A DNA stretch of 24,000 bases from Xylanimicrobium pachnodae JCM 13526 = NBRC 107786 (GCA_001592145.1 BCWJ01000020.1:52096-76095), one strand, 5' to 3'; shown: positions 4,511-21,221, counted from the first letter of the stretch. Notes: generated from the letters alone by a model not told the origin. Numbers and translations are program-made.

Positions 4511-4511
4511 C

Positions 4512-6533: not shown

Positions 6534-6623
6534 CAGGCGGGTCCTAACTTCCGAGGGACGAGGGCGAACGGTGCCGCACCTTTCGTATGTGGGTTGACGG
6601 CACCCGCCTGATCCGAAGCACCG

Positions 6624-7274
6624 TCATCGGCGCTCGCCCACGGCCAGGACCGGGGCGACCAGGGTGGCCGCCATCTCGCGGTCCTGGGCGGGGATCTTGC
6701 CCGCCTGTTCGTAGTCGGCGCTGATGTCTGCCGCGTCCCACGTCGGCAGCGGTGTGGCGTGAGGGGCGCACACGCAGCCGCGGGTTCGCCGGGTGCGCTC
6801 CGGGCAGCCGCACCCGGCGGCGGGCCACTGCGCGTCCAGGTCGGCCTGCAACGCGTCCACGCTGGCGTACGCGAGTCCGTCCACGTCCCATAGGCGCCCG
6901 TCTGGGGTGCGCCCGTACGCGTGGCTCCACTCCACCAACGGGTTCCCGTCCGCGTCGTCCTCCCCGTCGACCGGTTCGTAGCGCAGCACCACGTCCCCGC
7001 CGGTCGCGTCCGCGACCGCGAGAGCCAGGGCCAGGCAGTGACCGTTGCGGTACGCGTGCCGGGCGTTGTCGTCGAGCAGTCCGGGTGTCACGGTCACCGC
7101 GGTGATCGGGTCGCCGTCCTCGTCGCACACCGGGTCGAGCCAGTTGTCGATCAGGGCCAAGGACGCCGGACCGGTCACCTCCCCGCCCAGGTCGTACCCC
7201 GGCGCGGGACCGCCCCCGGTCGCGTACCGGCCTGCGCCGTCGTGCAGGGCCCCGCGGATGTCGATCGTGGTCAC
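6624..7274 (-). CDS. N-terminal-module family protein A (unknown C-terminal body)
   Basis: GTG start. N-terminus MTTIDIRGALHDGAGRYATGGGPAPGYDLGGE matches the 12-member module. The CCGGACAAG core ends 8 nt before the start, with no Shine-Dalgarno. Codon bias is good. Confidence 0.7.
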   Translation of the reverse strand: MTTIDIRGALHDGAGRYATGGGPAPGYDLGGEVTGPASLALIDNWLDPVCDEDGDPITAVTVTPGLLDDNARHAYRNGHCLALALAVADATGGDVVLRYEPVDGEDDADGNPLVEWSHAYGRTPDGRLWDVDGLAYASVDALQADLDAQWPAAGCGCPERTRRTRGCVCAPHATPLPTWDAADISADYEQAGKIPAQDREMAATLVAPVLAVGERR

Positions 7275-7278
7275 ACCG

Positions 7279-7291
7279 GGTACTTGTCCGG
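7279..7291 (-). promoter_or_regulatory. CCGGACAAGTACC motif, copy 1 (upstream of gene A)
   Basis: The plus strand reads GGTACTTGTCCGG. The core CCGGACAAG is exactly 8 nt from the GTG start at 7274. Confidence 0.6.
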
Positions 7292-7324
7292 CGAGCGGTC
7301 ACCTGCTTCGCCGAGCGGTGGAGG

Positions 7325-7344
7325 CCCCGTCCTTCAGGGCGGGG
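7325..7344. repeat. hairpin CCCCGTCC-TTCA-GGGCGGGG (putative right-end structure of the IscB element)
   Basis: 8-bp stem (one G-U/mismatch position) with a 4-nt loop, 50 nt downstream of the iscB stop. It is near-identical to the hairpin at 9108-9127. Confidence 0.5.
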
Positions 7345-7393
7345 AGGAAACCGCGTCGAGACGGTGTTCGGAACGTGGGTTGGTCGTTCTGGT

Positions 7394-8746
7394 TCACTTC
7401 TCGTCTCCGGTGAGGGTTGGTGTGGTCTGGTAGGTGTAGCCATCGCCGCGTTGGAGCAGCCGGACGTGTTTGTGGTTGATGCCCTGGATGGTGGTGTGGG
7501 CGGTGGTGATGTTGAAGGAGCCGGTGGCGCGTACCGCGACCCGGCCCACGTGGGTGCCTTGCTTCTTGCCGGTGGGGACGACGGCGCGTACGAGGTCGCC
7601 GGTGGCGTATCCGTGGTGGATCTTGGTGCGGTTGACCTTGGCTGGGGTGCCGTCTTTGGTGGTGCGGGGGAACCCGTACTTGTCGACGTTGACCCGCCGG
7701 TAGCGGCCCCGTCCGGCGCAGGTGACCACCAGGGTGGTGGCGGGCCACCCGGTGACACCTGTGACGTCTCCGACGCACAGGGCGTCCAACGCGTGCGTCT
7801 TTGGCACGGCGTGGACGGTGCGGTTGTACTTGGTGCGTCCGCCCGTGGACGTTTTGACCGGGAACCCGCGTGCTTCGATCGCGTGGGTTAGCGCCCACCT
7901 CGTGGAGTTGACGGCTGCCGCGTCCCGCAACGGGCGTTTGAGCCCGGCCTTGACCCGTGCCAGCCGGGCAGGGTCGCAGGCGAGGAACACCTCGACGGGT
8001 TGTGCGTCCTTGGCCTGGTTGCAGGTCACGCAGGCGAGCACGAGGTTGGAGACCCGGTTGGACCCGCCCTTCGACCGGGGTCGCACGTGGTCGATGTTCA
8101 GGGGCACGCCGGTGGCGTCGCAGTACACGCAGGTGTGTCGGTACTTGGTCAGAAGGTATTCGCGGGCTTCGAACCCGGCCAGGGTGCCTTGCTGGTACTC
8201 GACCCCGCCGATTTCGGGGTTCTCCATCGCTTGGGTGTCGAAGCGGACGGCTTCAACGTGCACGCCAGTAATGGGTGCCCATCTGGTGAGTCGGTCCACC
8301 CAGGACAGGGTCGTGACCACCCGGTGCCGGGTGGACGGTGCCAGCCACGTGTTGAGCCCGTCGACGGGGTGACGGCGTCGGTTGTCGAACCTCGGTGCGC
8401 GGTAGCGCAGGTTCCGCGACCGGCGGCCCCGGCGTAACTGTGCGCGGGAGGTCATCGCATTCTTGATGGTCAGGCCCCGGTGGACCAGGTCGATCAAGGT
8501 CACCGCTGTGCGTTCACCGTCCCGGGTGGTGGTGAACAGGGCCAGGCCGGAGTGTTTGCTGCCGGGGTCGATGCCGAGTTCCACACCATCGACATCGATC
8601 CCGGGGGTGGTCGCGTCCACGTCGACCAGGCGGATGATGAACGGGACGACCCGGTGGACTCGGGCGCGTCCTTTGCGCAGCAGTTCGCGTGCGCGGGCAG
8701 GACGGGTCGGCATCAAGGGCCGACCGTGACGGTCGAGCACGAACAC
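7394..8746 (-). CDS. iscB: IscB, RNA-guided RuvC/HNH nuclease (RRXRR-HNH family)
   Basis: PLMP domain (FVLDRHGRPLMPTRPARARELLRKGRA). RuvC-I (GIDPGSKHSGLALF). Arginine-rich bridge helix (RRGRRSRNLRYRAPRFDNRRR). HNH (CVYCDATGVPLNIDHVRPRSKGGSNRVSNLVLACVTCNQAKD). RuvC-III (HALDALCVG). C-terminal TAM-interaction-like region (GDLVRAVVPTGKKQGTHVGRVAVRATGSFNI...QGINHKHVRLLQRGDGYTY). Start placed at the GTG at 8746, just before the PLMP domain. The track's extension to 9079 is low-complexity and likely non-coding. Confidence 0.85.
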   Translation of the reverse strand: MFVLDRHGRPLMPTRPARARELLRKGRARVHRVVPFIIRLVDVDATTPGIDVDGVELGIDPGSKHSGLALFTTTRDGERTAVTLIDLVHRGLTIKNAMTSRAQLRRGRRSRNLRYRAPRFDNRRRHPVDGLNTWLAPSTRHRVVTTLSWVDRLTRWAPITGVHVEAVRFDTQAMENPEIGGVEYQQGTLAGFEAREYLLTKYRHTCVYCDATGVPLNIDHVRPRSKGGSNRVSNLVLACVTCNQAKDAQPVEVFLACDPARLARVKAGLKRPLRDAAAVNSTRWALTHAIEARGFPVKTSTGGRTKYNRTVHAVPKTHALDALCVGDVTGVTGWPATTLVVTCAGRGRYRRVNVDKYGFPRTTKDGTPAKVNRTKIHHGYATGDLVRAVVPTGKKQGTHVGRVAVRATGSFNITTAHTTIQGINHKHVRLLQRGDGYTYQTTPTLTGDEK

Positions 8747-9107
8747 GCGCCCGACAAGTAGGGGACGGTCACCCGTCCCGGCTCCCGCACCCACCGGGGA
8801 CCCGGCAGGTGCGGGGGTGACGCCGACAGCAGCAGGAGAACTGCTACCGGTCTCCCCTCGACCCTGTTGACCGCTGCGGTGCCCCGGCATAGCCGTGGCG
8901 CCCGTGCCCCGTTTCGTGGATACCCCATCCGTGTCTGCTGGCACAGGTTCGAGAGCGGCGGGCTGAGGAAGCACCCGACGGTCGATCTGCTGTCGTGCGG
9001 TCAACGCTGTCACCTCCATCTCCTTGTCTCTTGGTGACGTGGTCTGGTCAATCAACCCCTGAAGTTCTCCAGGGCTCAACGGTCAGCGAAACGCCTCCCG
9101 TGACAAG
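8747..9107 (-). ncRNA. candidate IscB omega RNA (scaffold) region
   Basis: The location directly 5' of iscB and abutting its start is where IscB omega RNAs are encoded. The in-frame translation is G/A/P-rich low complexity. Local stems are visible, for example GGGACGG-TCAC-CCGTCCC at 8762-8779 and CCCTG-N8-CAGGG at 9057-9074. The exact ends are unknown. Confidence 0.4.
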
Positions 9108-9127
9108 CCCCTCCCTTCAGGGAGGGG
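9108..9127. repeat. hairpin CCCCTCCC-TTCA-GGGAGGGG (putative left-end structure of the IscB element)
   Basis: Perfect 8-bp stem with a 4-nt loop. The loop contains the present stop codon of gene B (TGA at 9117-9119 on the minus strand). Partner of the hairpin at 7325-7344. Confidence 0.5.
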
Positions 9128-9968
9128 TGATTGACTCGTCCTCGTACAGGCGGGCGACCGGGACGCGGTACTTGCGCGCGTACAGGCTGTCCCCGTCGTC
9201 GTACTCGACAACCACATACCCGGCCTTCTGTGCGACGCCCACGACGGTGACGGACATGCCGTCGAGTTCGTCGTTGCCGGGCAGGTCGAGCCGGTAGTCC
9301 TTGCCGACCATCGACGCGCGCGGCGGGCGCCGGTGCACGGTCTGCGGGCGGGTCGGCGGCACGTAGTCCTCGTTGCGGGTCCAAGTGATCACGGACTCCG
9401 GGTCGAACCGGCCCGGCGAGCAGGCGTTGCAGGAGTACTGCCGGTTCGCGGTCCTGCGGTTGCGCCCCACCTGGTGCCCGTTGGGGCAGGTGCCGACCCA
9501 GCGGGCGGCGGGCTTGGGCTGGCCGTCGAAGCAGCGTTTCCCGTCCCCGCCCAGCCCGATGGCGGTGCGCCGCCACTCCTCGTCGTGCCCGTGCCCGGGA
9601 CCGGTCAGCGCGTGCGCGACCTCGTGGGCGATGGTGTCGCGCACCTTCGCGTCGTCGTGGAGCAGGGTTAGGTCGTGAGACATGGAGATCGTGCGGTCCC
9701 GGTACCGGGTCTGCCCGGCCCGGGCCACCGCCGCGTCCCACTCGAACCGCCACCCGGCCAGGCCCACGTCGGTCAGCAGCCGCTCCGCGTCGGCGCGTAC
9801 CGCGTCCAGGCGTCGCTGCGGGTCCTCCGCGGGCGGGTACCCGTCCACCACCCCGACTGGGGCGACCGGTGCGGGCGCCGACAGGTCGTACCCGGCGGAT
9901 GAGCCGCCGGTGGTCGCAAACCGGCCCGCCTGGTCGTGCACGGCCCCGTTGGTGTCGATCGTGGTCAT
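9117..9968 (-). CDS. N-terminal-module family protein B with SprT-like zinc metallopeptidase domain
   Basis: ATG at 9968. N-terminus MTTIDTNGAVHDQAGRFATTGGSSAGYDLSAP. SprT-like core WRFEWDAAVARAGQTRYRDRTISMSHDLTLLHDDAKVRDTIAHEVAHALTGPGHGHDEEWRR (HExxH), followed by a Cys-rich ribbon (CPNGH...CNACSPG). The track ORF extends upstream over gene C and was trimmed. The last codons (ITPP*) lie in the hairpin of the IscB element. Confidence 0.8.
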   Translation of the reverse strand: MTTIDTNGAVHDQAGRFATTGGSSAGYDLSAPAPVAPVGVVDGYPPAEDPQRRLDAVRADAERLLTDVGLAGWRFEWDAAVARAGQTRYRDRTISMSHDLTLLHDDAKVRDTIAHEVAHALTGPGHGHDEEWRRTAIGLGGDGKRCFDGQPKPAARWVGTCPNGHQVGRNRRTANRQYSCNACSPGRFDPESVITWTRNEDYVPPTRPQTVHRRPPRASMVGKDYRLDLPGNDELDGMSVTVVGVAQKAGYVVVEYDDGDSLYARKYRVPVARLYEDESITPP

Positions 9969-9972
9969 GCCT

Positions 9973-9985
9973 GGCACTTGTCCGG
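9973..9985 (-). promoter_or_regulatory. CCGGACAAGTGCC motif, copy 2 (upstream of gene B)
   Basis: The core CCGGACAAG is exactly 8 nt from the ATG at 9968 and 15 nt after the stop of gene C. No Shine-Dalgarno. Confidence 0.6.
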
Positions 9986-10000
9986 GAGGCGGGCGTCCGG

Positions 10001-10975
10001 TCAGGTGGCCGGTCTCTTGTGTTTGCGGTACTTCCCGAATCCGTTGCTGGTCACCGAGACCCAGGTGCCGCACACCGGGCAGATGGCCCCGTTCCCGGCG
10101 GCGAACCCGCGCCGTTCGGTGGGGTTCTTGCGCGGGTGCGGGCCACCCCACTGATGCTGCTGCCCCGAACCGGGGCAGGTGTCGTCAGAAGGGGCTTTCC
10201 CGATCGTCCACTCCACCGGCGCGGTGGGGAAGCATACCGAGCACAAGATCGCGCCCTCCTGGTCGACCGCGGCCTTCTCGGTGAGCCCAGACAGGGTGGG
10301 CAGCCACGCGTACTGGGTCGTCGGGAAGCACGTCGAGCAGTTCATGTCCTTGTGGATGTGCCCGCCGGAGGCTTGCACGAGGAAGAACCGCTGCCACGGG
10401 TTGGCGTCGTACCGCTCCTCGTATGGGGCCGCCTCCTCAACCAGTGCTGCACGCTGCTCACGCAACGCATCGATCTTCTCGACAGCGGCCCGCGCACGAG
10501 ACGCCTTGGAGTGCGGGTCCCGCTGGTTGTCGAACGCCGCCATCACTTCGGCGCGCTGCTCGCCGGTCAAGTCCCGGTCAGGAACCCTCCCCCACTTCTC
10601 GATCACCTCTTGAGCATGGCGCTCGCGGTCGGTCAGGGGTGGCTCACTTGCGGCGAGTTCACGGGCCTTGGTCTCGGCGTCCTGGTTGCTCATCTGCCAG
10701 GGGCCCTGTTTGGACCGCCCGCGTACGACGGTGAGTTTGAACGTGTCATCAGCGGCCCGGTGGATGGCGTCGAATGCGTGCGCCGACTCGGACTGGAGTC
10801 GGTTCAGTTCACCGAAAATGCGGGCCAGTTCGGTGTCGTTGGCTACCGCTTCGTCATGCGGGACCGGTGGCGGGGAGGCTGGCACCCCCAGATCGTAGCC
10901 AGCGGCCCCGCCCGTCTGGTGGGCGTACTGGCCGACCTGGTCGTGCAGGGCGCCGTTGCGGTCGATGGTCGTCAC
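10001..10975 (-). CDS. N-terminal-module family protein C (coiled-coil-like middle, Cys-rich C-terminus)
   Basis: The GTG start overlaps the TAG stop of gene D by 1 nt (TAGTG). N-terminus VTTIDRNGALHDQVGQYAHQTGGAAGYDLGVP. C-terminal CxxC pairs (CSTCF, CSVCF, CPVCG). It has no motif copy of its own and appears translationally coupled. Confidence 0.7.
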   Translation of the reverse strand: MTTIDRNGALHDQVGQYAHQTGGAAGYDLGVPASPPPVPHDEAVANDTELARIFGELNRLQSESAHAFDAIHRAADDTFKLTVVRGRSKQGPWQMSNQDAETKARELAASEPPLTDRERHAQEVIEKWGRVPDRDLTGEQRAEVMAAFDNQRDPHSKASRARAAVEKIDALREQRAALVEEAAPYEERYDANPWQRFFLVQASGGHIHKDMNCSTCFPTTQYAWLPTLSGLTEKAAVDQEGAILCSVCFPTAPVEWTIGKAPSDDTCPGSGQQHQWGGPHPRKNPTERRGFAAGNGAICPVCGTWVSVTSNGFGKYRKHKRPAT

Positions 10976-11214
10976 TACAGGTCTTCTCCGTTGCGTTCCG
11001 CTGCGTCCGCGCACCCGATGCACAGGTGGTCGCCTGCCGCGTCGTAGTACGCCACCGACGCCTCGGTGCGCCCACACCGGTCGCAGGTGTCGTACCCGCC
11101 AACGACGGAGACGAACAGGTCGGCGCGCAGGTCGAACCCGACGGTGGGGCGCGCCTGGGAGGCGAACTGCCCGTTCGCGCCGTGCAGGTTCCCGTACCGG
11201 TCCAAGGTGGCCAT
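10975..11214 (-). CDS. N-terminal-module family protein D (module plus zinc ribbon only, 79 aa)
   Basis: ATG preceded by ACGGAGGACACG (GGAGG Shine-Dalgarno), 12 nt after the gene E stop. N-terminus MATLDRYGNLHGANGQFASQARPTVGFDL, then CDRCGR...HLCIGC. Resembles the first ~75 aa of gene H. Confidence 0.65.
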   Translation of the reverse strand: MATLDRYGNLHGANGQFASQARPTVGFDLRADLFVSVVGGYDTCDRCGRTEASVAYYDAAGDHLCIGCADAAERNGEDL

Positions 11215-11226
11215 CGTGTCCTCCGT

Positions 11227-12435
11227 TCAGTCCATGTTGTTGGCGATCAGGTATTCGGTGCCGTACGCCTCGACGGGGTCGAGACGGTCGGTGATCTGCG
11301 TGGGCAGGTCTGCCCGAGTCACCTGCTCGGGGGTGGCGGTGTCCAGAAACTCGCGGATCTTCGCGCGGGCTGCGTTGCGCGCGTGCCGGTCGTCCGGGTA
11401 CGCGGTGGACGCCTTCGCGACCTTGAGCACGGTGGCGCGCATGTCGGTGCCGACGCGTGCTGGGTCCAGGCCCCGCATCACGACGGCCGCCGCGTTCTCC
11501 CGGCCCTTCTTGCACAAGGCGCGGATTTCGGCGCCGGTCAGGTCGTCCCGCCCGGCCAGCCCCTCCCACCCGCGCCGGTCGTTGCCGGTCAGGATGCGCT
11601 CCCTAACGTCGGGTGCCAGGTCGGGGTGCGCGGCCACCAACTCGACGGCTCGGCCACCGAACCGGAACCCCCACCGGTCGGTGTCCTCGGGCCGGTCCCC
11701 CAGAATGAACCGCTGCGTCTGGGGATGAAGCCGGATCGCGTCCTCGACGACGTGGGCGGCCATCAGAGACCCGCCAGGCCCGTACGGGTCCTCCGCCGCG
11801 GCCTGCTCGATGCTGGCGATCTGCGCGGTCGCGCCCTGCTGGTCGCGTTGGGTGTACTCGGCCTCCACCTGGGCGGCGAACCGGTCCAGGGTTGTGCCCG
11901 CAGGGTCGGACGAGGTGTGCAACCGGACCCCGGTGCGCCGGTCGGTCGCTTCCAGGTACGCACCGATGGACGCATACGGGCTGGTGATGACGGCGACATC
12001 GAAGCGGGCGTCTGGGTGGTCGGCGTTCCACGCGGTGGCGTCCTGCGCGGTGGGGGCGCAGTGCGCGGTGAGGCGACGTACCTGCGGCGCGGTGAACACC
12101 CCGGGTCCGACACCGTTGGCGCTCGCCTCGAACGCGTGCTCCAACCACGTCTCCTCGGCGGCGCGCTCCACGTCCTCGACCAGGCAGTGCGTGGACCCGG
12201 TACCGGTGTGGACCGTGCCGCTCACCGGGGCGAAGCAGTTGCCGCACACCCCGGCGCAGTCGTCGGCCTGGTAGTCGGCGGCGAGCATGTCGGCGGGCAC
12301 CGGTGGCACCGAGAGCACCGGCACCGGTGTCGGCGGCTGCGACGAGCCCAGGTCATACCCGGCGGCGGGTTGCCCCTTGGCGGAGTACTGCCCGAGCCGG
12401 TCGTGCAAAGCGCCGTTGGTGTCGATGGTGGCCAC
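11227..12435 (-). CDS. N-terminal-module family protein E (unknown body)
   Basis: Start placed at the GTG at 12435 (VATIDTNGALHDRLGQYSAKGQPAAGYDLGSS), with GGAG 8 nt upstream. The track start at 12471 would add 12 aa that no other family member has. Confidence 0.7.
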   Translation of the reverse strand: MATIDTNGALHDRLGQYSAKGQPAAGYDLGSSQPPTPVPVLSVPPVPADMLAADYQADDCAGVCGNCFAPVSGTVHTGTGSTHCLVEDVERAAEETWLEHAFEASANGVGPGVFTAPQVRRLTAHCAPTAQDATAWNADHPDARFDVAVITSPYASIGAYLEATDRRTGVRLHTSSDPAGTTLDRFAAQVEAEYTQRDQQGATAQIASIEQAAAEDPYGPGGSLMAAHVVEDAIRLHPQTQRFILGDRPEDTDRWGFRFGGRAVELVAAHPDLAPDVRERILTGNDRRGWEGLAGRDDLTGAEIRALCKKGRENAAAVVMRGLDPARVGTDMRATVLKVAKASTAYPDDRHARNAARAKIREFLDTATPEQVTRADLPTQITDRLDPVEAYGTEYLIANNMD

Positions 12436-12473
12436 GTGATGCTCCGGGGTCGAAGGAGAACGGTTCGTCACCG

Positions 12474-12486
12474 CCTACTTGTCCGG
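12474..12486 (-). promoter_or_regulatory. CCGGACAAGTAGG motif, copy 3 (upstream of gene E)
   Basis: Core lies 17 nt after the gene F stop and 42 nt before the GTG at 12435. The leader ends in CCGGAGCATCAC. Confidence 0.6.
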
Positions 12487-12503
12487 GGCCGCTAACACCT
12501 GCC

Positions 12504-12968
12504 TCACCGCCAAATCCGGGCCTCGATCGGGGCGCCCACCAGGCGGGCCGCGATCAGCCGGTGCGCCCCGTCGAGGTGCCACATCCGTCCGTCTCCGGGG
12601 CGGTCCGTTACCACGATTGGCTCGATCAGGTTCCCGCGTTCGAACGCCTCCACATACGCCAGCACCTGGGCCACCTTCACGCGAGCCTGCCGCACCACCA
12701 CCGGGTCGTCGGGGGCCACCTCGATGGCTTCGTGCGCGTACTGGAACGAGCCGCCGCCGAGTCTGCCCTGCTCCGCAGAGTGCACCGCAAGGAACCCGAG
12801 GTCCGTAATCGGCACCGTCGCCCTGCGGCCCGCCACGGCACGGAACCGCTCAATCGGGGACGGTGCGGGGGCCAGGTCAAATCCGGGAACCCCGCCGGGT
12901 TGCACGGCGAACCGTCCTGCTGCGTCGTGCAGGTTGCCGTGGTCGTCGAGCGTGCGTGCGGCGGTCAC
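12504..12968 (-). CDS. N-terminal-module family protein F with ParB/Srx-like N-terminal domain
   Basis: The GTG start overlaps the gene G stop (GTGA). N-terminus VTAARTLDDHGNLHDAAGRFAVQPGGVPGFDLAP. The C-terminal part LAYVEAFERGNLIEPIVVTDRPGDGRMWHLDGAHRLIAARLVGAPIEARIW resembles the ParB-like nuclease domain core (Pxxv...y.lvDGhHRl.Aa...G). Confidence 0.65.
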   Translation of the reverse strand: MTAARTLDDHGNLHDAAGRFAVQPGGVPGFDLAPAPSPIERFRAVAGRRATVPITDLGFLAVHSAEQGRLGGGSFQYAHEAIEVAPDDPVVVRQARVKVAQVLAYVEAFERGNLIEPIVVTDRPGDGRMWHLDGAHRLIAARLVGAPIEARIWR

Positions 12969-13768
12969 CGGCGCGACCCGCGGTCTCGGTGGTCCTGCTC
13001 GCAGGTGCCGCACAGGTGCGGGTCGTCCCCGTCGGACGGGTCGGACACCACGGACCCGCCGCACTCGTGGCAGCGGGTGGCCAGGTTCGGGACGAAGTCG
13101 ATCTGCTGGGCGGCGGGCACGTCGTAGAACCGGCCCATCGACGTGTCGACGGTGGTCCACGGGCGTCCGTCCGCCCCGATCGCCACCTCGATGTCGGTCA
13201 CGGTGAAGAAGTCGGCGCGCGACGAGTCCAGCAGGTCGGTGTACAGGCTGTCCTCCGCCGGGTGTGCGGGGTCTACGTCCGGGTCACACCATTCGCCGTC
13301 GGTGTGGACCAGCCCCGACTCGGTGACGGTCAGGCGGGCCAGGCATTCGTCGCAGGTCGGCCCGTAATGGTTGGTGACCAGCGGTGTCGCGACGATCTGG
13401 TCCCCGTCGCGTAGCCCGCCCGCGGACGCGCGCATGGTCAGTTGCGCGTCCTGGTACAGGGCGGCGCGCTGCGCGAACGACAGGTCGTTCGCGGCGGCGT
13501 ACCCGTCCAGGTAGGGGCGCGGGTCGGGGGCGGTCAGCACCGGGGCGGGTAGACGACCCGCGTTCACATGCCGGGTCAGCCACCGGGTGGTGTGCTCGGA
13601 GACGTAGTCGCCGTACGAGGTCACGTCCTGGTTCGCCGCGGTGAACAGCGTGTCCGGGACGACTTGCACTGCGGCAGGGGCCAGGTCGAACCCGGCTGCC
13701 GGGCCGGTCTTGGTCTCGAACAGCCCGGCACCGTCGTGCAGGTTTCCGCGCGCATCGATGACTGTCAT
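12965..13768 (-). CDS. N-terminal-module family protein G (unknown body, C-terminal zinc ribbon)
   Basis: ATG at 13768. N-terminus MTVIDARGNLHDGAGLFETKTGPAAGFDLAP. Cys motifs CDEC and CHECGG...HLCGTC. Motif core 8 nt upstream, no Shine-Dalgarno. Confidence 0.7.
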   Translation of the reverse strand: MTVIDARGNLHDGAGLFETKTGPAAGFDLAPAAVQVVPDTLFTAANQDVTSYGDYVSEHTTRWLTRHVNAGRLPAPVLTAPDPRPYLDGYAAANDLSFAQRAALYQDAQLTMRASAGGLRDGDQIVATPLVTNHYGPTCDECLARLTVTESGLVHTDGEWCDPDVDPAHPAEDSLYTDLLDSSRADFFTVTDIEVAIGADGRPWTTVDTSMGRFYDVPAAQQIDFVPNLATRCHECGGSVVSDPSDGDDPHLCGTCEQDHRDRGSRR

Positions 13769-13772
13769 GCGA

Positions 13773-13785
13773 GGTACTTGTCCGG
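13773..13785 (-). promoter_or_regulatory. CCGGACAAGTACC motif, copy 4 (upstream of gene G)
   Basis: Core is exactly 8 nt from the ATG at 13768 and 10 nt after the gene H stop. Confidence 0.6.
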
Positions 13786-13795
13786 CGGGTTCCGC

Positions 13796-15310
13796 TCAGC
13801 GTCGCCGCGCTCGGTGCACCAGGTCTTCTGGTCTCGTGTTCGGCTGCCATGCGGCGACGACACGGGCACGCATCTCGTCCCATTCCTGCTGGCGGGCGGA
13901 CGTCTTGGCCGCGGCTTCGGCGTTGATCCGGTCCACCATGTCCTGGGTGGCACCCATCTGGGGGTGGTAGTCGTCCACCGTGCGCACGGTGGCGTCGGCG
14001 GGGCGACGACTGGCCGAGACGGTCTGCCCGTCCACGAACCAGTAGGTGCGCTCGTTCGGATCGAACTCGTCCTCGTTGAAGGTGGCGCGCGGGAACTGCT
14101 CAGCGATCCGCTCGCGCACAACGATCGGGTCGGTCTGCGAGGCATGGACGGGGATGGTCGTCCCCGGCACGGTCTTGAACACCTCACCGTCCTTCCCGAC
14201 GTACTCGATCACGCCCGGCCCGGGCAGGAACCGCAGCCGGGTGCCGGGGTTGGTGCTGTTGCCCAGCGGCATCGTCAGCGTGACCACACCCTCGGGGCCG
14301 GTCTCGACGGAGAGCACCTTCCAGTTCCCGACCCCGTCGGACTCGATCCGGTCGCCCGCCTTGATCTCGGACGGCGCCACCGGGCGGATCTCGTCCGCGA
14401 GGCTGCCGGTGACGACCGGCTTCGCGAACGCCTTGACCCCGCCGCGCGTCGAGTTGTTCACCAACTCGTCGAAGTCGCCCCAGGGGTCTTTGCGGGCGAA
14501 GTTGGACGCGTACGAGAACGAGTCCGGGTCGTCGAACCAGCCCCGCTCCCCCGCCATCGCCACAGGCAGGCCGCGCTCCCACCGCTTGCGGGCCTCTCGC
14601 TTGTCGATCTTCTCGGTCGGGTACCGGGTGCGTCCGTCCCGTTCGTCCAAGGCGGCGGTGATGGCCCCGTTGAGCCAGGGCGAAATCTCGCCGCGCGCAT
14701 ACATGTCGTACTGGTCGCTGGGTGACAACTCCCCGGAGACGAACCGGGCCACCAGTGCGTCCTCGCGGGCCTGCTTCTCAGCCCGGAAGTCCTGGTGCTC
14801 GTCCGGGGTCTCCCCGATCTCGTCCTTGCCGAGGATGTCGAAGTCTTCAATGTCCAGCCGGATGTGGTTGCCGACCACGAATCGGTCGACCTCGCGGATG
14901 TCGGCGAACGGTCCGAACTTGCGCCCATCGGAGGTCAAGATCCACCTGGCCGTGTCGTCGGCGGCAGGCTCGCGCACCCCGGGCCGGTTGCGCGACCCGG
15001 ACAGGTGCGGGGTGTCGTCCGCTGGGTAGGAGCCGGTCGCGTTGAGCGCAAAGGTGCGGGCGTACGCGTCCGGGTCCTGCCGCATCTCCTCTAGGCGTCG
15101 TTCCTCGACGCAGGCCAGGCACCAGTGGTTCGCGCCGGACGGGCCGTACGCCTGCACGCCGCAGGTGCGGCGTCCGCAGCGGTCGCACGGGTCGCCGCGT
15201 TCGGCGCCGAGGTTCTCCGGGCTCAGGTCGTACCCGGGGGCACCTTTGTGCTGGTCGGCGTACCGGCCCAGGTTGTCGTGCAGGGCGCCGTTGTCGTCGA
15301 TGGTTGCCAC
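13796..15310 (-). CDS. N-terminal-module family protein H (module, zinc ribbon, large unknown body)
   Basis: GTG at 15310 with GGAG 8 nt upstream. N-terminus MATIDDNGALHDNLGRYADQHKGAPGYDLSPE, then CDRCGRR...HWCLACVEE. 504 aa. Confidence 0.7.
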   Translation of the reverse strand: MATIDDNGALHDNLGRYADQHKGAPGYDLSPENLGAERGDPCDRCGRRTCGVQAYGPSGANHWCLACVEERRLEEMRQDPDAYARTFALNATGSYPADDTPHLSGSRNRPGVREPAADDTARWILTSDGRKFGPFADIREVDRFVVGNHIRLDIEDFDILGKDEIGETPDEHQDFRAEKQAREDALVARFVSGELSPSDQYDMYARGEISPWLNGAITAALDERDGRTRYPTEKIDKREARKRWERGLPVAMAGERGWFDDPDSFSYASNFARKDPWGDFDELVNNSTRGGVKAFAKPVVTGSLADEIRPVAPSEIKAGDRIESDGVGNWKVLSVETGPEGVVTLTMPLGNSTNPGTRLRFLPGPGVIEYVGKDGEVFKTVPGTTIPVHASQTDPIVVRERIAEQFPRATFNEDEFDPNERTYWFVDGQTVSASRRPADATVRTVDDYHPQMGATQDMVDRINAEAAAKTSARQQEWDEMRARVVAAWQPNTRPEDLVHRARRR

Positions 15311-15347
15311 GGGTGTCTCCGGTCGGTGAGGTCTGCTGTGCTCTGTC

Positions 15348-15360
15348 GTCTCTTGTCCGG
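15348..15360 (-). promoter_or_regulatory. CCGGACAAGAGAC motif, copy 5 (upstream of gene H)
   Basis: Core lies 4 nt after the gene I stop and 41 nt before the GTG at 15310. The leader ends in CCGGAGACACCC. Confidence 0.6.
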
Positions 15361-15364
15361 CGGG

Positions 15365-16558
15365 TCAGCGCCCGAACCGGCGGCGCTGCCAGGCGGTCGG
15401 GGCCATGAGGTGCTTGCGGAACTGGTTGTCCGGGTCTTCGTACCCTTGCCACCGCTTCCCGCAGACCGCGCACGTGACCGTGTCACCGACATCGCCAACG
15501 GGCGCGCACTCGTGGGTGCGTTTGATCGCCTTGAGGCGGGCCTTACCGAGCGCCTGAAGGTGCTTGCCGATCAGGGCGTGCACGTTCACCTCGCGCGGCA
15601 TGTCGTAGCCGGTTTGTCCGACGACGGTGGCGGCGAAGGTGGCCTCTGCGCGCAGGTCGCCCACCGTCAGGTTGTCCAGTGAGCGGTCGAGACCGCCCTC
15701 ACCGTGCAGGGCGTCCTCGATCCCGTCCACAGTGACCGCGTTGTCGGGGTCGTCGTCGTGACGGTGCGGGACTCCGTGCTGGGCGAGCAGGGTCGTCAGC
15801 GGGGTGCTGTCTGCGTAGTCGTCCACGTCCGGGAACGCTGCCCGCATCCGTGCGAGCGGGGTCGCCTTCCGATCCCTCAGCGCTGCACCGGCCTCCCGCA
15901 TCTGGTACGGGGTCAGCGGGTGCGGCGGGACGGGTGCGATGCGGTCGGCGGCGGCGCGGGCGTTGGCCGCGGACCGTGGTTCTGTGTCCGCAATGTGAGC
16001 GGCGAACCGGCGCAACTCGCGGGCCGCCGACCTGTCGTCCAACAGCGCAGCGGGGTGACAGCGGAAACCGCTGCCATCCGTGTCGGTGACCCTGTCGGCG
16101 GGCAGGTGCATTCGGGCTAGGCGTTCGGTTGCGGAGACCTCATGCTGCGCCATGACCTCGTTCAACCACGCGTGCGCAGCCGGGTTCTCCGGGTCGGACT
16201 GGACTTGCTCGACGGCCTCGTTCAGTTCCAGGTTCCGGATCTGGGCGACCAGGTAGGCGTGGGTGCGGCTGTCCTCCGGGGCGGATCCCAGGGCGGTGCG
16301 CGCCTCCTCGATCCGCGCCGTCCACACCGTCTCGGTGGGCGGCGCCGCGGGCTCCGGGGTGGGGGTTGCGCCAGACGGGTTCCGCCGCGCCAGGTCGGCC
16401 TGGTAGTCGTCGTAGTCGGACACCACCCGGCGCAACGCGTTGACGAGCCGGTCCGCGCCGTCGGAGACGGACAGGTCGTAGCCCGCGGACGGGTGCGCCT
16501 TGTCGGTGAACTGTCCCAGGCCGTCGTGCAGGTTGCCGCGCGTGTCGATCGTCGTCAT
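15365..16558 (-). CDS. N-terminal-module family protein I (unknown body, C-terminal CxxC ribbon)
   Basis: ATG at 16558 (track ORF trimmed). N-terminus MTTIDTRGNLHDGLGQFTDKAHPSAGYDLSVS. C-terminus HECAP...CAVCGKRW. Confidence 0.7.
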   Translation of the reverse strand: MTTIDTRGNLHDGLGQFTDKAHPSAGYDLSVSDGADRLVNALRRVVSDYDDYQADLARRNPSGATPTPEPAAPPTETVWTARIEEARTALGSAPEDSRTHAYLVAQIRNLELNEAVEQVQSDPENPAAHAWLNEVMAQHEVSATERLARMHLPADRVTDTDGSGFRCHPAALLDDRSAARELRRFAAHIADTEPRSAANARAAADRIAPVPPHPLTPYQMREAGAALRDRKATPLARMRAAFPDVDDYADSTPLTTLLAQHGVPHRHDDDPDNAVTVDGIEDALHGEGGLDRSLDNLTVGDLRAEATFAATVVGQTGYDMPREVNVHALIGKHLQALGKARLKAIKRTHECAPVGDVGDTVTCAVCGKRWQGYEDPDNQFRKHLMAPTAWQRRRFGR

Positions 16559-16562
16559 GCCC

Positions 16563-16575
16563 GGTACTTGTCCGG
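16563..16575 (-). promoter_or_regulatory. CCGGACAAGTACC motif, copy 6 (upstream of gene I)
   Basis: Core is exactly 8 nt from the ATG at 16558 and 6 nt after the gene J stop. The whole gap is 23 nt with no Shine-Dalgarno. Confidence 0.6.
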
Positions 16576-16581
16576 TGACGC

Positions 16582-18297
16582 TCAGAACAGCGGGACGGCC
16601 CCAGCCCCGGCGGCCTGGTCGAGCACCCACGCGGTTTCGCCCTCGTCCACGGCGCCGGTCGCGGCCCGTTCCTGAAGGTATGTGGTGGGTGTGCGGCCCA
16701 TACCCGTCACCGCGACCTGTGCCGTGGCGTCGGTCAGGTCCCAGGTGGTGCCGTCGCGCAGCGCCAGGCGCCCGGAGTCACTGTGGAAGGTGCGCCCGGA
16801 CACGACCTCACCGTTCTTGCGGCGGCGCAGCACATCGTCGGGTGCGATGCCCGCGACGACGCGGGCCGTGTCGGTGTACGAGTCGGTGAACCTGACGAAC
16901 GTGTGTTCCTTGTCGGACAGCCGGTGCCAGCCGTCACTCCACCGTCCCCCTGAGATGGACGCGTTGTCCAGGTCGCTTGGCACGTGCGTGTCATCCTTGA
17001 ACGTGGCCACCACGGCGGGCACCCCTCGCTCGGTCAGCGCGTCCACCAGCATGTCGGCGCGCAACCCCTCCTGCCGACGGCGGGCCTCGTCCACCGCATA
17101 GTCGTGCGCGATCGAGCGCAGGTCGGCGCGGCTGACCGCCTCGGGGGCGATCCGCTTGTGCTCGGCGTACGCGTTGCGCAGTTCCAGCACGTCCTCGGGG
17201 GTCAGGGTGTTCGAGTCGACGGTGAACCCCAAATCCATCTCCGCAGCCGACGCCCCGTGACGCGCCTCGCGCTTCGCAGCGTCAAGCGCAGCGGTCGCGT
17301 CCTCGAACCCGCGCTCCACGTCCTGGACGTACGCCTTCTTCAGCGGCTCGGGCAGGGCGGCCACCTTCTCCTGAGCGCCTGTCAGCCAGCGCCGTGCCGT
17401 GTCTAGACCCTTCTTCGCCTTCATGACATCCGCAGCGCTGGCACGCAAGGGGTCGCCGTACGGAAACTCCGCCGTCGACTGCAGGTAAGCCAGGTTGGAC
17501 TCGCAGGTGGACACCTGCCGCTCCCGCTGCGCCAGCAGGCGCTCCGCCTTCTCGCGCTCCTCGCGGCGCTGCCGGACCGCGTAGTACTGCTCGGCCCAGT
17601 ACCGCTGGGTGTCGTCCGCGTCCCGCAGCACCTTCTGCGCCTCGACGGATAGGTCACTCCACTCGCCTGCCGGGGAGTCGGTCGTGCCGTCATCCTCGAT
17701 GGTGCCGGGCAGGGTGGCCTCGTCGATCTGGTCGCGCACCACCAGCAGGGCCGCCGTCTCGGGGTCCATCGTCGCCCCGTACGCGGACGCCAGTCCCTCG
17801 TTCTTGAACGCGTCCAGGCGGCGGGCCGGGTGATCGGCGGCTTCGGCGCGCAGGAAGTCGCCGACACACTGCGTCATGTCCTCGCTGGTCGCGGCGTCGA
17901 ACGCCCAGTCCCCGTCCGGGGACTCGTAGGTGACCTCACCGGTGGCGTCGTCCACGTTCGGGTCCACGTACATGATGTGCGGGCCGACCCGGACCTCCAT
18001 GAAGTCTCGGCCCCGGTTCGGGTCGTCCGACCAGTCGACCATGTTGTCGGAGTCCTGCTCGAAGGCCTCGCCGGTGTCCTTCAGGAAGACCGTCTCGCCG
18101 TCCACCGTGACGTTCAGGTCGGCGCCGGTGACCGCCTCGGTCACGTCGTTGGTGATCTGGCGGTGGGTGGCGATGTCGCGCAGGATCGTCGCGTGCACGT
18201 CCTCCCCGCCCAGGTCGTACCCGGCGGCGGGCTGGTTCTTGTTCGTGTACTGGCCCAGGCCGTCGTGCAGGGCGCCGCGGGTGTCGATGGTGGTCAC
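16582..18297 (-). CDS. N-terminal-module family protein J (571 aa, unknown body)
   Basis: GTG at 18297, 15 nt after the gene K stop. N-terminus VTTIDTRGALHDGLGQYTNKNQPAAGYDLGGE. No motif copy of its own. Confidence 0.7.
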   Translation of the reverse strand: MTTIDTRGALHDGLGQYTNKNQPAAGYDLGGEDVHATILRDIATHRQITNDVTEAVTGADLNVTVDGETVFLKDTGEAFEQDSDNMVDWSDDPNRGRDFMEVRVGPHIMYVDPNVDDATGEVTYESPDGDWAFDAATSEDMTQCVGDFLRAEAADHPARRLDAFKNEGLASAYGATMDPETAALLVVRDQIDEATLPGTIEDDGTTDSPAGEWSDLSVEAQKVLRDADDTQRYWAEQYYAVRQRREEREKAERLLAQRERQVSTCESNLAYLQSTAEFPYGDPLRASAADVMKAKKGLDTARRWLTGAQEKVAALPEPLKKAYVQDVERGFEDATAALDAAKREARHGASAAEMDLGFTVDSNTLTPEDVLELRNAYAEHKRIAPEAVSRADLRSIAHDYAVDEARRRQEGLRADMLVDALTERGVPAVVATFKDDTHVPSDLDNASISGGRWSDGWHRLSDKEHTFVRFTDSYTDTARVVAGIAPDDVLRRRKNGEVVSGRTFHSDSGRLALRDGTTWDLTDATAQVAVTGMGRTPTTYLQERAATGAVDEGETAWVLDQAAGAGAVPLF

Positions 18298-18312
18298 GGT
18301 GGGGTTTGCCTT

Positions 18313-19425
18313 TCAGTTTTGAGGGAGGGCGTGCATAGCGGTGCGGGTGGCGTGGGCGGCTTGGTCCAGTGCGGCGATCTTCTGCGCGCACGCCGCCGCG
18401 GTGTCCTCGTCGCCCAGCCCGACGGCGTGGAGGCGGGCCAGATCGAGCGCGTTCGTTTTCTGCGCGAGGAGGGCCAGGTGGGCGTCGGCATCCTGCTGGG
18501 TACGCAGCGACGCGACCGGGACGGCCAGCGCCTCGTCCGCGTACCGCTGGTGCTGGGTCACGCCCCGGTAGGCCAGGGTCCGGTGGGCAGCGTCATGGCG
18601 GAACTCCGCCTCAGCCAGCCGGTGCGCGGCGGCGTGGAACTCCTCGCTCTGCTCGTCCTCGATCTCGGTCCCGGCCAGGGCTGCACCCGGCAGAGCAGCG
18701 GCCTCGTTGTACTGGTCGCGCGCCTGGCGTAGTTCCTCGTCGGCGGCGGTTACCTCAGCCCACTCCTGGGCCTCGTCGTGCACGGCACGCCGCGCCCGGT
18801 AGGCGGACAGGACATCCTCGGGGGTGCCACCGAGCGCGGCCAGGATCGCGTCGTTGGTCGCCTGGCGGTGCTCCGGGTGCGCGTCCTGCCCGGAGTGGAC
18901 CAGTTCGACCAGGGCGGCGGCGTGCCCTTCGATCTTGCCGTCGAAGTAGCGGACGTCGCCGGTGGTAGCGTGATGCCGCTGTCGGTCCTTGGCGTAGGCG
19001 ATCTGCTCGGCATGATGCCGGGCGATGCGCTCACGCTGCTCGGGTGACACCTCGGCGCTGACCGCAAACGGGGGCCGCCCGCCGCGCAACTCCGCGACCA
19101 GATGCTCCGCCTGCCGGGGCACGTACCCATCGTCTGACTGGTACGCGTCGTCGAACGCGAGCCCGGGGTCACGCACCAGCGCAGCACCCTCCGCGAACGC
19201 GTACAGGCGGCCCTTGGCTGCGGGCGCCCCATCCTCGTCCCACCGCTCCGCGGCATCCGCCGCCTGGATCATCTCGGTGAGCAGCCGGTCGGACCGGGTC
19301 ACCTCGTCCCGCAGCGGGGCGTCCGGGACGGGGGCGTCCAGGTCGTACCCGGCAGCGGGCTGGTTCTGGTCGGCGTACCGGCCCCGGCTGTCGTGCAGGG
19401 CGCCGTTGTCGTCAATGGTGGACAT
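18313..19425 (-). CDS. N-terminal-module family protein K (helical, unknown body)
   Basis: ATG at 19425 with GGAG 9 nt upstream. N-terminus MSTIDDNGALHDSRGRYADQNQPAAGYDLDAP. Confidence 0.7.
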   Translation of the reverse strand: MSTIDDNGALHDSRGRYADQNQPAAGYDLDAPVPDAPLRDEVTRSDRLLTEMIQAADAAERWDEDGAPAAKGRLYAFAEGAALVRDPGLAFDDAYQSDDGYVPRQAEHLVAELRGGRPPFAVSAEVSPEQRERIARHHAEQIAYAKDRQRHHATTGDVRYFDGKIEGHAAALVELVHSGQDAHPEHRQATNDAILAALGGTPEDVLSAYRARRAVHDEAQEWAEVTAADEELRQARDQYNEAAALPGAALAGTEIEDEQSEEFHAAAHRLAEAEFRHDAAHRTLAYRGVTQHQRYADEALAVPVASLRTQQDADAHLALLAQKTNALDLARLHAVGLGDEDTAAACAQKIAALDQAAHATRTAMHALPQN

Positions 19426-19460
19426 GGTGATACTCCGGGTGAGAGGGCGATCCGTCGTTA

Positions 19461-19473
19461 CCTGCTTGTCCGG
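19461..19473 (-). promoter_or_regulatory. CCGGACAAGCAGG motif, copy 7 (upstream of gene K)
   Basis: Core lies 6 nt after the gene L stop and 39 nt before the ATG at 19425. The leader ends in CCCGGAGTATCACC. Confidence 0.6.
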
Positions 19474-19479
19474 GAACGG

Positions 19480-20553
19480 TCAGGACCCGATTTCGTAGTC
19501 CGCGCCGATGGCGGTGTGCCGGGCCAGCAGGATCTTCTGCCGGGTCGTCAGGTCGGCTTCCATCGAGAGCCGGAACCTGGCCTGCCCGTCCATCGAGTGC
19601 AGCGTGACCGACCTGTCATCGAACACGACGTCGACGCCGGACCGCCGCGCGTCCTCGATCGCGTCCGCCAGGTCATCCTTTGTGCCGCGCCCGTGCACCT
19701 CCGCGACCATGACCTCGCGGTACGGGTTCGTCTTCGCTTTGTCGGACAGGGTGGAGCCGAGCGCGAATGCGGATGCGAACGCCTGCGCCTCCCCGGTCGT
19801 CTTGCCGCGGATCGTGGCGGGCTGGCGGGAGTCCTGCGACGCAGCCGAGTCCAGCGTGGGGGCGGTGGTGAAGGACAGTGACGCGGGCGAGTTGTACCAG
19901 GCCCGGTCGTACCCGAACTCGGGGTCCCGGAACCCGAAGTCGTCGGCCAGACGCTCAGCCTGTTTCGGAGTGTCCTTGACCTTGAAGTTCCCGTTGATGC
20001 CTTTTGGCCACGGGCCGATGTTCCGGTTCGGGGTGTACCCCGCCCCGGCCTCACGGATGTCCGCCTCGGTCTGCTCCCGCCGCGACCGGCGCTTCGCCGC
20101 CGCATCCGGCCAAGACATCCGCAGCGGCTCAACACCAGGGTGCAGTGCGGCGAACTCATCGGCGGTCATGGCGCCACGCTCGACGTCGTAGCGATGGAAC
20201 TCGATCGCGTACTCGTCCGTCGCCTTGTCGTAGTCCCCACCAGCCTGTTCGCCGCAGAAGTTGCAGTAGCCGTCGTCGTCGCAGTCCTGGAGGTGATCTC
20301 CGGATGCGATGCAGTCCTCCAGGGTCACGTAGTCGCCACTAGCGGCAGCCGTGTCAGACCCTGGCCCGGACGAGACCTCGGTCTCGAAGCCATGCGTCTC
20401 GGCGAAGTCGGCAGCCATCTCGTGCGCGTCCTGCGCCGTCACAGGGTCGGGTTCTCGCAAGATGTACAGGTCGTATCCGGCGGCGGGCTGGTTCTTGTTC
20501 GTGTACTGGCCCCGGCTGTCGTGCAGGGCACCGTGGTCGTCGATGGTGGGCAC
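19480..20553 (-). CDS. N-terminal-module family protein L (unknown body)
   Basis: GTG at 20553 with GAGGAA 6 nt upstream. N-terminus (M)PTIDDHGALHDSRGQYTNKNQPAAGYDLYIL. First member of the array in transcription order. Confidence 0.7.
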   Translation of the reverse strand: MPTIDDHGALHDSRGQYTNKNQPAAGYDLYILREPDPVTAQDAHEMAADFAETHGFETEVSSGPGSDTAAASGDYVTLEDCIASGDHLQDCDDDGYCNFCGEQAGGDYDKATDEYAIEFHRYDVERGAMTADEFAALHPGVEPLRMSWPDAAAKRRSRREQTEADIREAGAGYTPNRNIGPWPKGINGNFKVKDTPKQAERLADDFGFRDPEFGYDRAWYNSPASLSFTTAPTLDSAASQDSRQPATIRGKTTGEAQAFASAFALGSTLSDKAKTNPYREVMVAEVHGRGTKDDLADAIEDARRSGVDVVFDDRSVTLHSMDGQARFRLSMEADLTTRQKILLARHTAIGADYEIGS

Positions 20554-20610
20554 CTGTGGTTCCTCGGATCGGGTCGGAGCGAGGGCACACCCCGGTGGGG
20601 GCGGCCTACC

Positions 20611-20623
20611 TGCACTTGTCCGG
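20611..20623 (-). promoter_or_regulatory. CCGGACAAGTGCA motif, copy 8 (upstream of gene L)
   Basis: Core lies 6 nt after the exonuclease stop and 61 nt before the GTG at 20553. Confidence 0.6.
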
Positions 20624-20629
20624 GGGCGT

Positions 20630-21184: not shown

Positions 21185-21221
21185 GCCGGGTATGTGGGCC
21201 GGGTCGGGCGTCTGGTGCGGC

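Follow-up and report, generated by a model that had tools for sequence, protein, structure and literature searches.

The question raised by the stretch of Xylanimicrobium pachnodae JCM 13526 = NBRC 107786 DNA analysed here (GCA_001592145.1 BCWJ01000020.1:52096-76095, 24,000 nucleotides of an 85-kb contig, hereafter the window) is what function is served by a nine-nucleotide sequence that recurs, always in one orientation, between the genes of a single array. The motif reads CTTGTCCGG on the plus strand, and as the minus strand was established by GC3 (third-position G+C) frame analysis to carry every gene from 1721 to 24000, it is read as CCGGACAAG on the coding strand. Within the window, which has a G+C content of 68.9%, exactly eight matches to CTTGTCCGG were found, all on the plus strand, at 7283, 9977, 12478, 13777, 15352, 16567, 19465 and 20615, as compared to a chance mean of 0.29 copies in dinucleotide-preserving shuffles, where the maximum was two and none of 100 shuffles reached eight. 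One-mismatch variants (13, with approximately 9.6 expected) lie inside genes and are scattered over both strands. We consider it fairly likely, on the basis of the sequence comparisons given below, that CCGGACAAG, usually followed by T-A, represents the core of a compact, non-canonical promoter of the gene family to which the array belongs, and for which the name TID was coined in this study.

The eight sites fall into two classes according to their distance from the start codon. At four of them exactly 8 nt separate the motif from the start codon and no Shine-Dalgarno sequence is present, these being the minus-strand sites in front of genes A (7283-7291, spacer tacccggt, GTG at 7274), B (9977-9985, spacer tgccaggc, ATG at 9968), G (13777-13785, spacer tacctcgc, ATG at 13768) and I (16567-16575, spacer taccgggc, ATG at 16558), which we refer to as the leaderless class. 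At the other four, also on the minus strand, a longer leader ends in a Shine-Dalgarno sequence, GGAG or GAGG, located 6-8 nt before the start codon: the motif precedes gene E at 12478-12486 (42 nt to GTG at 12435, GGAG 6 nt before the start codon, predicted transcription start 12469), gene H at 15352-15360 (41 nt to GTG at 15310, GGAG at 6 nt, predicted start 15343), gene K at 19465-19473 (39 nt to ATG at 19425, GGAG at 7 nt, predicted start 19456) and gene L at 20615-20623 (61 nt to GTG at 20553, GAGG at 8 nt, predicted start 20606). The preceding stop codon lies close by in each case, at 7 nt for A, 17 nt for B and E, 11 nt for G, 4 nt for H and 6 nt for I, K and L, while the motif-free genes C, D, F and J are coupled to the gene upstream by TAGTG and GTGA overlaps or by gaps of 12 and 15 nt. 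An earlier note, made from the sequence of this DNA, had claimed eight exact one-strand copies, their position 4-17 nt behind a stop codon, both kinds of spacing and the coupling of the remaining genes, and all of these claims were confirmed.

The same note had interpreted the motifs as partitioning the array into units; what the motif marks, however, is not simply such a unit but a gene-family module consisting of the signal together with an N-terminal domain. All twelve array genes, A to L, are paralogs at their N-termini, a point which had been missed, and share a module of about 30 residues, M-T-T-I-D-x-N-G-A-L-H-D-x-x-G-R-Y-A-x-x-x-x-P-A-A-G-Y-D-L, behind which the C-terminal bodies are mutually unrelated. 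The corresponding DNA segment was independently recovered by a repeat finder, which returned 11 copies, each of 95 nt, with identities of 63-84%. The motif was not seen at the remaining junctions of the window, namely those of the gyrB/gyrA, dnaQ-like, ftsK-like and iscB genes.

Relatives of the array were sought in genome and metagenome contigs by means of the TID peptide pattern alone, blind to the DNA motif, and approximately 45 kb were examined in total; three contigs (L002, L004 and L018) represented false positives of the peptide pattern. The metagenomic contigs L006 to L015, which have a G+C content of 65-67% and derive from several samples, with two duplicate pairs among them (L010 = L006 and L013 = L012), encode close TID relatives and hold 24 further exact copies of CCGGACAAG, every one of them on the strand that carries the genes. 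Together with the window this amounts to 32 copies on at least nine contigs, identical at nine of nine bases, confined to the gene strand (32 as compared to 0) and, with the exception of two (L008:128 and L007:5828), located upstream of a TID gene. Where a TID gene of these contigs lacks the motif, it occupies an internal position in a tight operon, as was seen for C, D, F and J, and a variant, CCGGACAAA, occurs at two sites of relatives. At L006:2474-2485 and L015:4262-4273 the motif is embedded in the last codons of the preceding gene, whose stop codon is completed by the T-A that follows (CCG GAC AAG TAG), which indicates that the signal can overlap coding sequence. More distant TID relatives, comprising a Cellulomonadaceae metagenome-assembled genome (L001, L003 and L005), contigs L016 and L017, and Curtobacterium plasmid pS16 (L019), lack the motif, which indicates that, across the contigs compared, it is specific to one lineage of elements and invariant within that lineage. 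In L016 (2480-2520, 8660-8700 and on the minus strand near 6650) and L017 (530-580) a different block, GCCCGC-S-C-W-CAT-K-TGGG-Y-ATG, was observed directly upstream of the conserved ATG, and this may be that lineage's own version of the signal, the four sites all being from one sample.

Since the eight downstream genes of the window are all paralogs, shared 5' ancestry is to be expected, and the motif could in principle be a functionless relic copied with the genes by tandem duplication. This is scarcely credible given that the motif is invariant in all 32 copies although the non-coding bases on either side of it are no more alike than background, and that even the adjoining N-terminal coding DNA, which is under protein constraint, displays no more than the 63-84% identity mentioned above. 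In support of the promoter reading, gene G and its ortholog at L015:1344, whose products share 52% identity, both retain the motif and the 8-nt gap while four of the eight spacer bases and the entire upstream region differ.

Statistics on 25 non-redundant sites, 18 of which are leadered, yielded the consensus c-c-CCGGACAAG-T(19/25)-A(16/25)-n-c-n-n-n-Y(21/25)-R(24/25), with unconserved flanks, no column further 5' reaching 0.4 bit. A -35 element was not apparent from the information per column, nor from k-mer enrichment in the 30 nt ahead of the motif, where the sole enriched words are the stop codons of the preceding gene. The two spacing classes recur in the enlarged set: a Shine-Dalgarno sequence is lacking at 7/7 sites where precisely 8 nt separate motif and start codon, and is present, 6-9 nt before the start, at 19/19 sites where this gap is 35-65 nt, no intermediate gaps being observed and both classes using the same conserved M-T-T-I-D start. 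The ninth base after the motif is a purine at 24 of 25 sites and at none of them a C, and the eighth is a pyrimidine at 21. This bias is not merely due to the A or G of start codons, as the leadered sites taken alone display a purine at the ninth base in 17 of 18 cases (binomial p = 7e-5), with a pyrimidine at the eighth in 14. No inverted repeat or second half-site was found at the motif. The DnaA box, with the consensus TTGTCCACA, was considered and rejected, as it resembles plus-strand CTTGTCCGG but its CACA end is missing from the motif.

These features are consistent with a promoter element which would span about -17 to -7 relative to a transcription start at the ninth base after the motif, this start being a purine preceded by a pyrimidine. 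With +1 so placed, the motif would occupy -17 to -9 and T-A positions -8 and -7, a G+C block (CCGG) being followed by the region's sole A+T-rich stretch (ACAAGTA), where the -10 element would melt, and no -35 element would be used. For A, B, G and I the start codon would coincide with +1, giving a leaderless mRNA for which no Shine-Dalgarno sequence is needed, while E, H, K and L would be furnished with leaders of 31-53 nt (27-57 nt across all leadered sites) carrying an ordinary Shine-Dalgarno sequence, and the motif-free genes C, D, F and J would be translated from the transcript of the upstream gene. The predicted start resembles those mapped in Streptomyces coelicolor: 96% of the sites have a purine at +1, with C (64%) or T (20%) at -1, as compared to 87.9% purine at +1 and 55.5% C or 22.7% T at -1 in that organism, where about 21% of mRNAs are leaderless and leaders are most often 30-39 nt long (PMC4895711). 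The promoter and leaderless-mRNA interpretation already put forward in the earlier note is thus supported by the recurrence of motif, strand and both spacings in relatives found by protein search alone, and also by the pyrimidine and purine at a fixed 8 and 9 nt downstream, leadered sites included. The motif is immediately preceded by strong G+C hairpins of -26 to -36 kcal/mol in L015, L006, L011 and L007, including one of -29 kcal/mol between the upstream gene and the motif in L015, and this implies that the downstream gene there needs a promoter of its own, for which the motif is the only conserved sequence available.

The housekeeping (HrdB/SigA) promoter of actinobacteria is characterised by TANNNT, or at least ANNNT, ending approximately 6-7 nt before the start site (PMC4895711, PMC6448022). 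Neither was present in any register among the 25 sites, the bases at -12 to -7 being C A A G T A, with T at -7 in 0/25 and T at -3 in 3/25, and a sigma-70-type promoter scan of 6400-21300 on both strands returned none; the 25-site columns and the scan agree with the previous remark that the hexamer is not a TANNNT box and that no -35 is visible. The layout typical of extracytoplasmic function (ECF)-type promoters, an AAC-containing -35 located 16-18 bp upstream of a short -10, was likewise not seen, positions upstream of -18 carrying at most 0.4 bit. The absence of TANNNT or ANNNT and of any sigma-70-type promoter in the array suggests that the motif is probably read by something other than the housekeeping sigma factor, and this reader could be an alternative sigma factor of the host, an activator binding at the motif, or a sigma factor or polymerase specific to the element, the last being a possibility raised in the earlier note. 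When compared with the leaderless and short-leader promoters mapped in S. coelicolor and Mycobacterium (PMC4895711, PMC6448022), the motif is alike in being a single element near -10 with a weak or absent -35, in the purine start after a pyrimidine, and in having either the start codon at +1 without a Shine-Dalgarno sequence or a leader of about 30-50 nt with one. It differs from these host promoters in that its -10 is neither TANNNT nor ANNNT, in that conservation extends to -17, and in being an invariant 9-mer, which host promoters are not.

A number of observations weigh against a promoter. The motif is not known to fit any sigma-factor consensus, and no candidate sigma or polymerase gene was present in the 24-kb window or in the fetched fragments of relatives. 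Of the two copies without a TID gene behind them, L008:128 is predicted to start at a T and is more than 100 nt away from any gene, and L007:5828 is followed by a hairpin and the end of the contig. The sites are partly non-independent, several leaders being recognisably homologous between contigs. The predicted +2 is a purine in 16 of 18 leadered sites, whereas S. coelicolor start sites prefer a pyrimidine at this position (PMC4895711). Finally, the stop codon of the preceding gene is located only 4-17 nt ahead of the motif in the window and no terminator intervenes, so that read-through transcripts must also exist, and a role at the level of RNA or as a roadblock is possible there.

Such read-through, probable in the window for tightly packed genes on one strand that lack terminators, would place the motif in RNA, where it might act as a site for an endoribonuclease cutting polycistronic transcripts at a fixed distance to give monocistronic, partly leaderless mRNAs, or else as a signal for stability or translation. 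Cleavage at a constant distance from the motif would account both for the 8-nt class and for the base bias at that position. We regard this explanation as improbable for several reasons: mapped mycobacterial cleavage sites have a C at the new 5' end in more than 90% of cases (PMC6448022), in contrast to the purine predicted here at 24 of 25 sites with C at none; the motif lies outside any conserved or preferred RNA structure, its base pairing in RNA folds (0.49) showing no preference relative to control 9-mers (0.59), and no match in the window reached the Rfam gathering thresholds; inspection revealed no meaningful complementarity to the anti-Shine-Dalgarno sequence; the variable 35-65 nt gap in leadered genes indicates that the motif is not a ribosome-binding signal; and the hairpins 5' of the motif in relatives favour re-initiation. 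Nucleases are not known to measure off 8 nt from a single-stranded site of nine nucleotides.

Read-through would also be compatible with an asymmetric operator or roadblock, at which an element-encoded DNA-binding protein represses or stops TID transcription that starts elsewhere. Known counterparts are the stoperators of cluster A mycobacteriophages, where the immunity repressor of the phage binds and blocks elongation; they are 13-bp asymmetric sequences (GGTGGMTGTCAAG in the L5 type) present at 20-30 sites genome-wide, at many kinds of junction and oriented with transcription (PMC6550527), and the motif shares with them its asymmetry, its locked orientation and its many-fold repetition at gene junctions of an actinobacterial mobile element (PMC6550527, PMC9283540). 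A protein bound at -17 to -9 would, moreover, overlap the predicted promoter, and in this form the operator and promoter functions are compatible. However, GGTGGMTGTCAAG has 20 matches with two or three mismatches in the window as compared to 13 expected, and none of the eight motif sites matches it within three mismatches. The motif also appears to differ from stoperators in its restriction, over the 24-kb window and about 45 kb of relatives, to one gene family, as it precedes TID genes in the window and, bar two copies, in the relatives and is not found at the remaining window junctions; furthermore, neither the exact 8-nt gap nor the purine at the ninth base of leadered sites would be needed by a roadblock, no repressor was identified, no alternative promoter was detected by the sigma-70-type scan, and the hairpins in relatives speak against dependence on read-through. 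The stoperator analogy offered in the earlier note is thus not supported, and an operator as the principal function appears unlikely. The start-associated sequences (SAS) of cluster K mycobacteriophages, 13-bp repeats (GGGATAGGAGCCC) which are found 3-7 bp ahead of the start and include the Shine-Dalgarno core, are likewise strand-locked and immediately upstream of the starts of non-structural genes, and their function is not established (PMC3203893); the motif, in contrast, has no AGGAG and sits 8 nt or 35-65 nt from the start. This candidate was rejected, as GGGATAGGAGCCC has five matches with three mismatches in the window as compared to eight expected, none of them at motif sites.

A signal at the level of DNA and unrelated to expression would be either a polar site for an FtsK/TraB-like translocase, comparable to KOPS, SRS or the TraB recognition repeats (TRS) of Streptomyces plasmids, which are strand-biased 8-mers, or a recombination site at cassette boundaries. 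A strand-locked 9-mer every 1.1-2.9 kb, adjoining an FtsK-like gene (21222-24000, minus strand) with weak similarity to TraB, accords with the former, and a conserved 5' module joined to unrelated 3' domains is what would be expected of cassette exchange. Polar translocase motifs are, however, unlinked to gene starts, while the motif keeps an exact or narrowly bounded distance from the start codon and is followed by a base bias at a fixed distance; neither the placement regardless of gene starts nor the clustering in a clt locus that distinguishes KOPS, SRS and TRS was observed, the motif not being clustered. As regards recombination, the motif has neither an inverted repeat nor a second half-site, and no recombinase is encoded in the window apart from the IscB insertion described below. 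In addition, the leaders are unrelated among sites, which argues against homogenisation by gene conversion and for the 9-mer being kept by selection at each site. We therefore view a purely DNA-level role as very unlikely.

Turning again to a promoter as the preferred function, one set of analogues is formed by the late promoters of phage T4 (TATAAATA, read with gp55), which are minus-10-only phage promoters. They are comparable in consisting of a short conserved element near -10, without a -35, that is repeated before co-regulated genes of a mobile element; the sequence of the motif is nevertheless unrelated, its 5' half is G+C-rich, and neither the window nor the fetched fragments revealed a sigma-like gene. 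A second parallel is provided by hyperplastic loci whose genes share a 5' module, for example those encoding the internal proteins of T4-like phages; these loci also consist of tandem genes having a common promoter, a short N-terminal segment and unrelated bodies, but here too the sequences are unrelated, and the TID module showed no sign of being a packaging or targeting signal. As a mobile-element-specific, promoter-like signal with leaderless output, the motif is unusual in its sequence, its invariance, the lack of a -35 and the exclusive link to a new family that is tagged at the N-terminus and variable at the C-terminus. A string search of the literature for the 9-mer returned unrelated primer matches only and no description of the motif.

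The array itself extends over 6624-20553 on the minus strand. Gene L (19480-20553, 357 aa) and gene K (18313-19425, 370 aa) each combine the TID module with an orphan C-terminal region, and K is followed after 15 nt by the motif-free gene J (16582-18297, 571 aa). Genes I (15365-16558, 397 aa), H (13796-15310, 504 aa) and G (12965-13768, 267 aa, the last being the ortholog of the L015:1344-2132 product) all carry the module, as does the motif-free gene F (12504-12968, 154 aa), which overlaps G by GTGA and has a ParB-like C-terminus. Gene E (11227-12435, 402 aa) is followed at a distance of 12 nt by gene D (10975-11214, 79 aa), which lacks the motif, has a GGAGG of its own and encodes a zinc-ribbon-like tail, and D is joined through the TAGTG overlap to gene C (10001-10975, 324 aa), also without a motif and bearing a phrog_2433 domain. 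Gene B (9117-9968, 283 aa) specifies a SprT-like / phrog_1006 domain and gene A (6624-7274, 216 aa) is the last to carry the module; the C-termini of genes other than B, C, D and F are orphans.

An exhaustive profile search of 1.84 billion representatives retrieved 96 proteins with the TID module at E <= 1e-3, as compared to just two by a word-indexed search with N-terminal alignment, and at 50% identity the family falls into approximately 90 clusters. Leaving aside a few low-complexity multi-stretch matches, the module is almost always found at the extreme N-terminus (usually residues 1-40) of proteins of 65-630 aa, fused to domains that include the BrnT ribonuclease toxin, PDDEXK, GmrSD_N (/ParB-like), SprT, Mg-chelatase/MCM, DUF2958, DUF7007 and DUF4258. 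No Pfam, NCBIfam or PHROG model covers the module itself, either in the window (6624-20553) or in the retrieved proteins (P0006-P0097), and it may represent a targeting or docking tag. Its identification as a YD/RHS-type repeat was considered and dropped, the top multi-stretch profile matches being low-complexity proteins without RHS domains. On the 546-kb plasmid pS16 of Curtobacterium sp. MCSS17_016 (L019:11552-12375) two tandem, distant TID-family genes without the motif lie within an operon that also encodes T2SS/T4P/T4SS-family ATPases, a GspF-like protein and a prepilin peptidase.

The genes flanking the array are the FtsK-like gene, which contains an intein, a gene for a DEDD exonuclease and a very divergent gyrB/gyrA pair. 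The intein of the FtsK-like gene is of the LAGLIDADG type (PF14528, PF05204), and its product possesses an acidic, repetitive (DLG)n C-terminal tail and the weak similarity to plasmid TraB already referred to (NF041214, E 2e-5). The gyrB/gyrA-like pair (1721-6533, minus strand) displays at most about 35% identity to phage and plasmid sets, and its nearest relatives (53% and 45% identical) are encoded on 35%-GC metagenomic contigs, L020 and L021, which contain no TID genes and no motif. The third positions of the window genes, in contrast, are 87-89% G+C, which suggests that the pair was acquired from a low-GC lineage long ago and has since adjusted in composition. Genes at 1-1724 lie on the opposite strand and converge on gyrA, and the region 324-959 of the plus strand encodes a helicase-associated (HA, PF03457) domain. 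Between B and A, and missed by the earlier note, is an IscB element (7394-9135, minus strand) whose open reading frame shares about 55% identity with annotated iscB genes and specifies a PLMP-like N-terminus in addition to RRXRR (E 1e-63) and HNH domains; a match to the HEARO/omega-RNA (74.5 bits, E 1e-14, narrowly short of the Rfam gathering score of 83) was obtained upstream of this frame, at 8846-9135. The 3' end of B was apparently the point of insertion of the element, as the last approximately 19 nt of that gene are located inside the RNA match and a residual frame (7299-7393) persists on its other side, the TGA at the end of this remnant being the stop codon 7 nt ahead of the motif of A.

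As regards the kind of element concerned, megablast of 6500-21000 and tblastn of gene L against phage and plasmid collections returned no match, and no relative was found in IMG/VR by a peptide scan and two DNA-pattern scans. Contig L008 (128-330 and 5924-6754) contains, between two copies of the motif, three GCTACCAA repeats and two copies of CAGGTKGTGCARGTTAGAYCGAGAG, with a gene for a ParA-type ATPase downstream, an arrangement that resembles a plasmid partition or replication region and suggests that the elements are plasmid-like. The ParA gene, the weakly TraB-like translocase and the absence of relatives in viral collections are all more consistent with a plasmid-like than a phage-like nature of the TID elements.

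A more far-reaching proposal, which we advance tentatively and hold to be possible rather than probable, is that the array reveals a new transcription specificity, in which an element-encoded sigma factor, polymerase or activator needing only an 11-bp element at -17 to -7 would switch on the TID family, a 30-residue tag joined to interchangeable nuclease, protease, toxin or ParB-like bodies, as one regulon, possibly deployed on entry into a new actinobacterial cell. If the blocks upstream of TID genes in distant lineages (L016/L017) are indeed other versions of the signal, signal and reader would co-evolve. Should the motif be a promoter, it would represent a compact and searchable type that is missed by TANNNT-based prediction in high-GC Actinobacteria, with eight precise predicted start sites in the window, and once its reader is found the 11-bp element could serve as a small orthogonal expression signal for the engineering of actinomycetes. 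The motif also delimits a previously unnamed gene family in which unrelated, effector-like domains stand behind TID, and the predicted co-regulation of this family suggests a common role for the mobile element, be it in establishment, in conflict with host defences or in transfer.

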